From the UHGV virus genome UHGV-0138564: DNA of 22,217 nucleotides; one strand, given 5' to 3'. The first letter of the stretch is position 1; each line of letters begins with the position of its first letter. Origin of the DNA: a virus. Below are positions 11,096-11,274 of the stretch, piece after piece. The position numbers and the translations under genes were made by a program. Below the pieces are notes generated by a model that worked only from the letters and a program-made list of their open reading frames with translations, ran no database searches and was not told the origin of the DNA.

Positions 11096-11251
11096 TAAAA
11101 TTACCCTTTATTATCCTTTTGAATCAATGGGTTGTGATTTGTTAATGATCCTAGGTTCGTTGCATATGCATAATCTATCAAAAAAAACTTACGCGGTCCG
11201 CATATTCTCGTTTACTGTGTTAAGAGTGGTTACTTCGCCACACAACTTAAA

Positions 11252-11274
11252 CCCGCCGCTGAGCGGTTTTTTTG
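11252..11274 (+). terminator. Rho-independent terminator (short GC stem CCGC-tga-GCGG followed by T7)
   Basis: Hairpin followed by TTTTTTT on the plus strand with no plus-strand gene for about 1.6 kb upstream; consistent with a short leader or tR'-like terminator of a late promoter. Confidence 0.45.

Follow-up and report, generated by a model that had tools for sequence, protein, structure and literature searches.

A probable PR′-type late regulatory site separated from its Q gene by an inverted two-gene cassette in a lambdoid prophage of E. coli

The DNA analysed here (the window; 22,217 nucleotides, virus genome UHGV-0138564) represents a lambdoid E. coli prophage, and strain NJS001 was 100% identical to it over the queried segment. 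The features around its late control region are collected in Table 1. Read from the ATG at 9290, the Q protein has 120 aa (the mechanical ORF begins at a TTG at 9275); it is 87% identical to the Q of phage cdtI and 48% identical to that of VT2-Sakai, and its resemblance to the PDB entry for Q21 is distant (80 residues, E = 4e-4). The DUF968 gene occupies the same place 5′ of Q in most related loci. The match of its product to HNH nucleases is weak, and one phage record mislabels a homologue as 'antitermination protein Q'.

Beyond Q lie two genes on the opposite strand, which we call the cassette. The 150-aa cassette protein is hydrophobic, as judged by inspection of a relative from its cluster, and searches of Pfam and PADLOC returned no match for it; likewise, the DUF6731 protein had no match in PADLOC. 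On the late side, an intergenic stretch of ∼300 bp separates the DUF6731 gene from the 67-aa ORF, whose homologue is annotated as a hypothetical protein in SfV, cdtI and Ayreon. For the terminator behind the methylase gene, the records of SfV and Ayreon mark a terminator at the homologous site; in the window it falls within a mechanical ORF (12806–13084). A phage-21-type holin probably starts at the ATG at 12870 (71 aa) and is followed by a lysozyme gene and then by packaging and structural genes.

Table 1. Features of the window from the gene preceding Q to the terminator in front of the holin gene
Feature	Position	Strand	Basis or remark
DUF968/HNH protein	8277–9272	+	Directly 5′ of Q
Q antiterminator gene	9290–9652	+	Pfam PF06530 Phage_antitermQ, E = 3.7e-52
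11-bp perfect inverted repeat	9667–9692		Between convergent Q and cassette; terminator scan
Cassette gene 2, 150-aa protein	9696–10148	−	ORF list; cluster c1, 8 loci among the matches listed
Cassette gene 1, 310-aa DUF6731 protein	10163–11095	−	Pfam PF20505, E = 2.6e-11; cluster c2
Cassette-specific upstream region	11096–11179	−	Best leftward promoter match ATCACA-17-GATAAT, 11138–11110 (promoter scan)
A8 tract	11180–11187	+	∼−45 to −38; one class of E. coli genome matches begins here
Palindrome GCGGTCCGC	11193–11201	+	−32 to −24, CG-rich; candidate Q-binding element
Putative −10 hexamer TACTGT	11213–11218	+	Conservation and alignment to homologues
Predicted late transcription start	∼11223–11225	+	Within invariant TAAGAG, by homology to Sakai
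Nearly invariant, putative initial transcribed block TAAGAGTGGTTACTTCGCCACACAACTTAAA	11221–11251	+	All 131 loci among the matches listed
First terminator	11255–11273	+	CCCGCCGCTGAGCGG then T7; stem GCCGC/GCGGU
First late-side ORF, 67 aa	11395–11598	+	ORF list
DNA methyltransferase	11749–12801	+	Pfam PF01555; PADLOC MTase_II, E = 1.3e-152
Second, stronger terminator	12808–12832	+	Between methylase and holin; −15.6 kcal/mol, z = −3.8

The inverted repeat between the convergent Q and cassette genes folds with −17.0 kcal/mol on the plus strand (z = −3.1) and with −15.5 kcal/mol on the minus strand (z = −5.4), where it has no clear U-tract; it is likely to be the 3′ hairpin of the cassette as well as a stop for transcripts from the Q side. 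At the other end of the cassette, the segment from 11096 to 11179 must hold the cassette's own leftward promoter, and it is unconserved both in loci with other cassettes and in cassette-less relatives.

The original prediction had pointed to a hairpin followed by seven T residues on the plus strand at 11252–11274, with no plus-strand gene upstream of it nearer than Q. Both observations proved correct. Q ends at 9652, the interval 9696–11095 is taken up by the two minus-strand genes, and the sole plus-strand ORF across the site (10962–11351) is mechanical, lies antisense to the DUF6731 gene and runs through the terminator. In the hairpin itself, positions 11255–11259 pair with 11263–11267 (five pairs, four G-C and one G-U) around a TGA loop, and the T-run covers 11267–11273. 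This places the T-run at ∼+43 to +49 from the predicted start, so that the terminated leader RNA would be ∼45–49 nt long. The consensus scan flagged the element as terminator-like on the plus strand, as one of 14 such sites in a 4.5-kb region for which shuffled sequences gave 5.1 ± 2.3. With a GC-rich hairpin and a U-tract of at least 7 it has the make-up of an intrinsic terminator, with a stem that is short and weak for its kind. Since the fold is weak when taken alone (−6.3 kcal/mol, z = −1.1 relative to shuffles), energy fails to set the hairpin apart from chance; conservation does, since among the matches listed all 131 loci have the hairpin and T-run behind the same leader. The window's hairpin lacks a G that most relatives keep, and we found no compensatory changes in support of the stem. 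Part of the segment 11096–11400 matches 1434 out of 5426 complete E. coli genomes.

The hairpin is the downstream end of a conserved block (11180–11273) that accompanies the Q genes of the Q933/QuuD branch of PF06530. Scanning a viral contig collection with the leader recovered at least 131 loci with 42 distinct upstream sequences. Across these 42 sequences, among the matches listed, the positions corresponding to the A8 tract (−45 to −38) are A-rich, and the tract appears to resemble a proximal UP element; a second A-rich stretch spans −23 to −19. TACTGT aligns with TATCAT in VT2-Sakai and with TATGCT in the DLP12 type. In this column, T at −12 is present in 39 of the 42 distinct upstream sequences and A at −11 and T at −7 in all 42, whereas positions −10 to −8 vary freely (among the matches listed). 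Retention of these three bases with variation of the inner three is what is expected of a sigma-70 −10 element. By alignment, 11213–11218 would be the −10 element of the promoter of this Q subtype, with a predicted start at ∼11223–11225.

Judged by consensus alone, the window's promoter is poor. Its −10 hexamer agrees with the consensus at three of six positions, and there is no good −35 element at 17-bp spacing. The weak −35 candidates at 11188–11194, CTTACG (19-bp spacing) and TTACGC (18 bp), abut and overlap the left edge of the palindrome, and the 42 distinct upstream sequences among the matches listed share no conserved consensus −35. A promoter consensus scan did not flag the conserved promoter and returned 9 matches in the region compared to 7.6 ± 2.3 in shuffles.

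A start mapped experimentally is available for a homologous site. Sy et al. (2020; PMC7547250) placed the Sakai PR′ start, by dRNA-seq, and its 3′ end, by Term-seq, 258 nt apart. We positioned the Sakai start by this 258-nt spacing alone, the absolute coordinates of the paper being those of NC_002695.1, an earlier version of the Sakai record than the.2 version. Subtracting the spacing from the T-run of the second VT2-Sakai terminator (3212–3217) puts the start at 2958–2960, which is 5–7 nt past TATCAT and inside the invariant TAAGAG. In VT2-Sakai the block overlaps the Q stop and reads TTTACG-16 bp-TATCAT-GA-TAAGAGTGGTTACATTGCCACGCAG...CCCGCCGATGCGCGGGTTTTTTT. By blastn, the window is 82% identical to the Sakai PR′ region over 62 nt (11218 to 11278), with nothing further. 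The block of Stx2_EH1846, which has a Q ∼75% identical and no cassette, lies ∼10 bp past the Q stop (...GTAAAAAATGATTAGTGCGGTCCGCAAAAAGTATGTCAGTATGTTAAGAGTGGTTACTTTGCCACACAGCTTAAATCCGCCGTCAGGCGGGTTTTTT). Among the matches listed, cassette-less loci have TAAGAG 40 bp past the Q stop where Q is of the window type (6 loci) and 17 bp past it where the locus is of the 933W type (8 loci). The Q frame of the 933W type is longer than that of the window (an ORF of 157 aa, ∼144 aa as annotated in Sakai, versus 120 aa). In VT2-Sakai it extends into the promoter that Q itself targets, over the A-tract, the −35 element and the palindrome, with its stop inside the palindrome (2926–2938). This overlap of the Q frame with its own promoter may be the reason why the 933W clade was never found with a cassette among the matches listed.

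Comparison with Sakai also bears on how the hairpin should be named. The homologous Sakai hairpin (∼+30 to +50) folds with −12.6 kcal/mol and must nevertheless leak, since the 258-nt PR′ transcript accumulates without induction. By blastn, the window has no counterpart of the second Sakai terminator (+258, the mapped tR′) or of the StxS segment. Between promoter and late genes it instead has two terminators on the late side, the weak one at 11255–11273 and the one at 12808–12832. The former is therefore best called the first terminator of the late leader and not 'the' tR′. It is reasonable to infer that part of the polymerase reaches the 67-aa ORF and the methylase gene by leakage in the lysogen, and that the second terminator shields the lysis genes until Q acts.

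Downstream of the start, the leader from −6 to ∼+27 is common to all Q clades among the matches listed. Folding revealed a small hairpin, GUGGU-N6-GCCAC, at 11226–11241 (+2 to +17). It is kept in all Q clades, with a varying loop and with one G-C pair changed to G-U in the DLP12 type; it could be a pause hairpin, or it could reflect plain conservation at the DNA level. The leader also contains a −10-like element, which is TACTTC in the window (11231–11236), TACATT in 933W and TACTTT in the EH1846 type. The pause pattern TAnnnT fits the latter two but not the window's TACTTC. We regard 11221–11251 as a candidate region for sigma-dependent pausing and Q loading.

The palindrome varies along with Q. 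Upstream of the block, 107 loci among the matches listed had a PF06530 Q on the same strand; this set is redundant, 43 of the loci being of the DLP12/porin type. In these 107 loci palindrome core and Q clade correspond one-to-one, with no clear exception. All of the following counts are likewise among the matches listed. The core GCGGTCCGC goes with the window-type Q (26 loci, 7 intervening architectures), GCGTACGC with the mEp460 type (20 loci, 11 architectures) and TACGTACGTA with the QuuD/4C10 type (44 loci, 2 architectures), a subgroup of which, 80–85% identical to the 4C10 Q, has TACAATCGTA (3 loci, 2 architectures). The Q933 clade carries TACGATCGTA (8 loci, a single architecture in which the block is adjacent to Q), and a clade 62% identical to the 4C10 Q carries TGTTATAACA (5 loci, 1 architecture). 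One more window-type locus has the near-variant GCACGGTCCGC, which the core pattern leaves unclassified and which completes the 107. This co-variation suggests that the palindrome is likely to be the Q-binding element, and we read the invariant leader as probably serving steps of the host polymerase and sigma factor, i.e. pausing and loading. The pairing could partly reflect linkage through exchange within clades and not selection. Q21, the only PF06530 member with solved structures, binds a direct repeat and not a palindrome.

On the minus strand, the palindrome and the A8 tract together look like a terminator (11204–11190 followed by T8 at 11180–11187) pointing into the promoter region of the cassette. 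We rejected this candidate, because the palindromes of other subtypes (e.g. GCGTACGC) form no hairpin and because it folds weakly (−6.1 kcal/mol, z = −1.1). Its appearance is probably a by-product of a palindrome lying beside an A-tract, although an insulating role in the window's Q subtype is conceivable.

The block lies 1.5 kb past the Q stop in the window, so that the PR′ unit is not adjacent to Q. The original prediction had explained this distance as displacement by insertion of the cassette; the separation is as described, but it is the majority state of this Q subfamily and not a one-off event. Indeed, Q and the block are split by 0.6–2.6 kb in 93 of the 107 loci and adjacent in only 14 (among the matches listed). 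Adjacency of Q and PR′ is typical of the textbook examples, not of this Q subfamily. Closer examination of cdtI, mEp460_4F5, UPEC_U013, CH4784, H1827/12 and ECONIH2 revealed one plan in every locus: a small PF06530 Q, a gap of 3–43 bp, one or two unrelated minus-strand genes, a block like 11180–11273 and the late genes. In six loci, the window among them (43 bp), the gaps between Q and the cassette were 43, 28, 23, 14, 12 and 3 bp, which leaves no room for a promoter there. What occupies the slot varies widely, with at least 23 cassette architectures and 34 protein clusters, 30 of which are on the minus strand. The contents include the NmpC/Lc porin, proteins matching the PADLOC candidate defence families PDC-S20, PDC-M53A and PDC-M68A, a KwaB-like protein beside a small hydrophobic one, and NA37-family proteins. 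Several cassettes are pairs of a ∼270–360-aa protein and a hydrophobic protein of ∼110–195 aa.

Taken together, we consider it probable (roughly 80%) that 11180–11273 is a PR′-type late regulatory site belonging to the Q gene at 9290–9652. The homology of the block, its position, its pattern of conservation and the correlation of its palindrome with Q subtype are observations; our inferences from them concern the activity of the promoter in this subtype, the binding of Q, polymerase pausing and the efficiency of the terminators. The window thus adds one more example to a late control region that is already known, that of the Q933/QuuD type, and shows it in the split form that is common. A late promoter with a terminated leader within 11100–11274 had been part of the original prediction, and block homology, the mapped Sakai start, the conservation of the −10 element and the palindrome all speak for it; the description of the terminator as tR′-like should be used with caution.

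Other placements of the promoter have to be weighed against this reading. The textbook position is directly past Q (9653–9700), since descriptions of the PR′ unit call it 'adjacent' to Q, and the window does have a plus-strand hairpin there (9667–9692); transcription would then cross the cassette antisense, and 11255–11273 would be merely its first terminator. However, the 43 bp from the Q stop to the cassette stop consist mostly of the 26-bp hairpin, with 3–28 bp available elsewhere, the segment has no homology to the sequence that follows Q in cassette-less relatives, and the conserved promoter-like block lies on the other side of the cassette. We hold this placement to be extremely unlikely. 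The same low standing applies to CATAAT, which the original prediction had offered as a possible −10 element near 11163 and which actually occupies 11169–11174, outside the conserved block. It agrees with TATAAT at five of six positions and would put the start near 11181, with a ∼90-nt leader. Yet it is part of the cassette-specific segment, the corresponding positions (−56 to −51) are unconserved in the 42 distinct homologues among the matches listed and fall inside the Q coding sequence in cassette-less relatives, it has no usable −35 element and the scan did not flag it; the probable −10 element is TACTGT.

Alternatively, there may be no promoter at all, the hairpin and T7 being a terminator or insulator at a module boundary that stops early rightward or antisense read-through ahead of the methylase and lysis genes. 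The poor match of the window's promoter to the consensus would fit, as would the fact that homology with phages carrying a lambda-family Q begins at this same terminator, which in Ayreon and the Stx2c phages is preceded by a lipoprotein gene. An insulator would leave unexplained the invariant 45 bp 5′ of the hairpin, the conservation of T-12, A-11 and T-7, the palindrome matched to Q type and the mapping of the Sakai start to the homologous TAAGAG; it would also leave the phage without an identifiable late promoter, and we consider it quite unlikely. Finally, the main product of the site could be a regulatory small RNA comparable to StxS, with control of the late genes being secondary. The Hfq-binding StxS of Stx phages does arise by processing of the terminated PR′ transcript, StxS_S being the last 74 nt of the 258-nt PR′ transcript (PMC7547250). 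The window, however, shares homology with no more than the initial ∼55 nt of this RNA, in an alignment of ∼60 nt that takes in some promoter bases, and has neither the StxS_S segment nor its terminator, and an RNA of 45–49 nt that consists mostly of two hairpins offers little free sequence for base pairing. A search of the whole window against Rfam at the gathering threshold returned nothing, and a permissive search of 11050–11450 returned chance-level matches only (Vault, STnc130). A main role as a small RNA is very unlikely.

Several known systems share parts of the arrangement of the probable late site. 933W and VT2-Sakai (Sp5), with Q933, resemble the window in their PF06530 Q (48%), the leader TGnTAAGAGTGGTTAC, the first hairpin with T7 and the position of the −10 element, and theirs is the PR′ whose start was mapped experimentally. 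VT2-Sakai differs in that the promoter overlaps the Q stop, a cassette is absent and the palindrome is TTTACGATCGTAAA. Its hexamers (TTTACG-16-TATCAT) are much nearer to consensus, and its transcript runs on to the second terminator at +258 and yields StxS, a segment the window does not have. No tRNAs were found in the window, unlike in Stx phages. DLP12 (qsr′) of K-12 and Lambda_4C10-type phages have the same split (Q, inverted gene, block, holin), but their cassette is the porin gene nmpC/lc, their palindrome is TTTACGTACGTAAA, their Q is 51% identical and no methylase module lies between block and holin. The order in K-12 DLP12 is quuD, nmpC::IS5 (minus strand) and then the block at 577,225, 2.9 kb past quuD and 170 nt before essD. 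The DLP12 lysis operon is stated to be under the control of a Q-type antiterminator (PMC7918800). As DLP12 has the same plan, the layout of the window is not new as a kind. The closest sequenced phage is cdtI, in which orf52 (Q) is followed by the inverted orf53/orf54, orf55 and the methylase gene. It has a Q of 87% identity, a homologous inverted two-gene cassette, the same palindrome (GCGGTCCGC) and the same downstream genes; it differs in cassette DNA, which falls below the megablast threshold, and in its −10 element (TAATCT), and its record carries no regulatory annotation.

The Q21-QBE-SDPE structures of phage 21 (PDB 6P18, 6P1A) concern a Q of the same Pfam family. The expected logic is shared, with Q sitting on promoter DNA, loading on sigma-containing paused polymerase and blocking the hairpin, whereas the QBE of phage 21 consists of two 8-bp subsites in direct repeat in place of the candidate 9-bp palindrome here, and descriptions of phage 21 put its PR′ unit next to Q. 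Homology of the window to other E. coli genomes and phages begins sharply at 11180, 11217/8 and 11250. The last of these is a mosaic joint, SfV, Ayreon and the Stx2c phages sharing sequence only from 11250 onward. These phages appear to carry Q proteins of the lambda family: the SfV Q is assigned by Pfam to PF03589, the lambda-Q family, and the Stx2c Q fragment has the CxxC motifs typical of it. In SfV the terminator lies ∼107 bp past Q and the intervening promoter-like sequence differs; in Ayreon and the Stx2c phages it stands behind a plus-strand lipoprotein gene and not behind a promoter.

If the late site works by the known Q paradigm, host sigma-70 RNA polymerase would initiate at ∼11223–11225. 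Without Q, a fraction of transcripts would end at T7, giving an RNA of ∼45–49 nt, and the remaining ones would end past the methylase gene, at 12808–12832. Upon induction, Q would be made from the early rightward transcript and, as a diffusible protein, could bind the palindrome 1.5 kb from its own gene. It would load on polymerase paused in the invariant leader, and the Q-loaded polymerase would pass both terminators and transcribe the methylase, lysis and structural genes. The cassette faces away from the late genes and has its own promoter in 11096–11179, and could therefore be expressed in the lysogen outside the late transcript.

A broader reading joins these points: the gap between the Q stop and the Q site would be a dedicated slot for lysogen-expressed and almost without exception inverted accessory or defence cassettes (split by 0.6–2.9 kb in most members), the QBE would be the CG-rich palindrome, at least five pairs of Q and site would stay matched through cassette exchange, and the DUF6731 protein with its hydrophobic partner would be an uncharacterised defence system. 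We offer this combination tentatively, at somewhat less than even odds. Literature searches for a hotspot between Q and the lysis genes, for quuD/ybcQ and for DUF6731 turned up nothing specific, and we found no paper describing the slot or the pairing of palindromes with Q.

For this group of E. coli prophages, the finding means that the site driving the late genes (toxin, methylase, lysis) can lie kilobases from Q, and a search for PR′ 'just after Q' would therefore miss it. In one paper, a Stx2a prophage in which Q is divergent was reported to lack PR′. The pairing of Q subtypes with palindromes provides testable candidate recognition sites in a family where the Q21 site is organised differently, and the slot between Q and its target is a practical place in which to look for new prophage accessory and defence genes. 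These two leads, the palindrome pairing and the cassette slot, are more useful than the late region itself.
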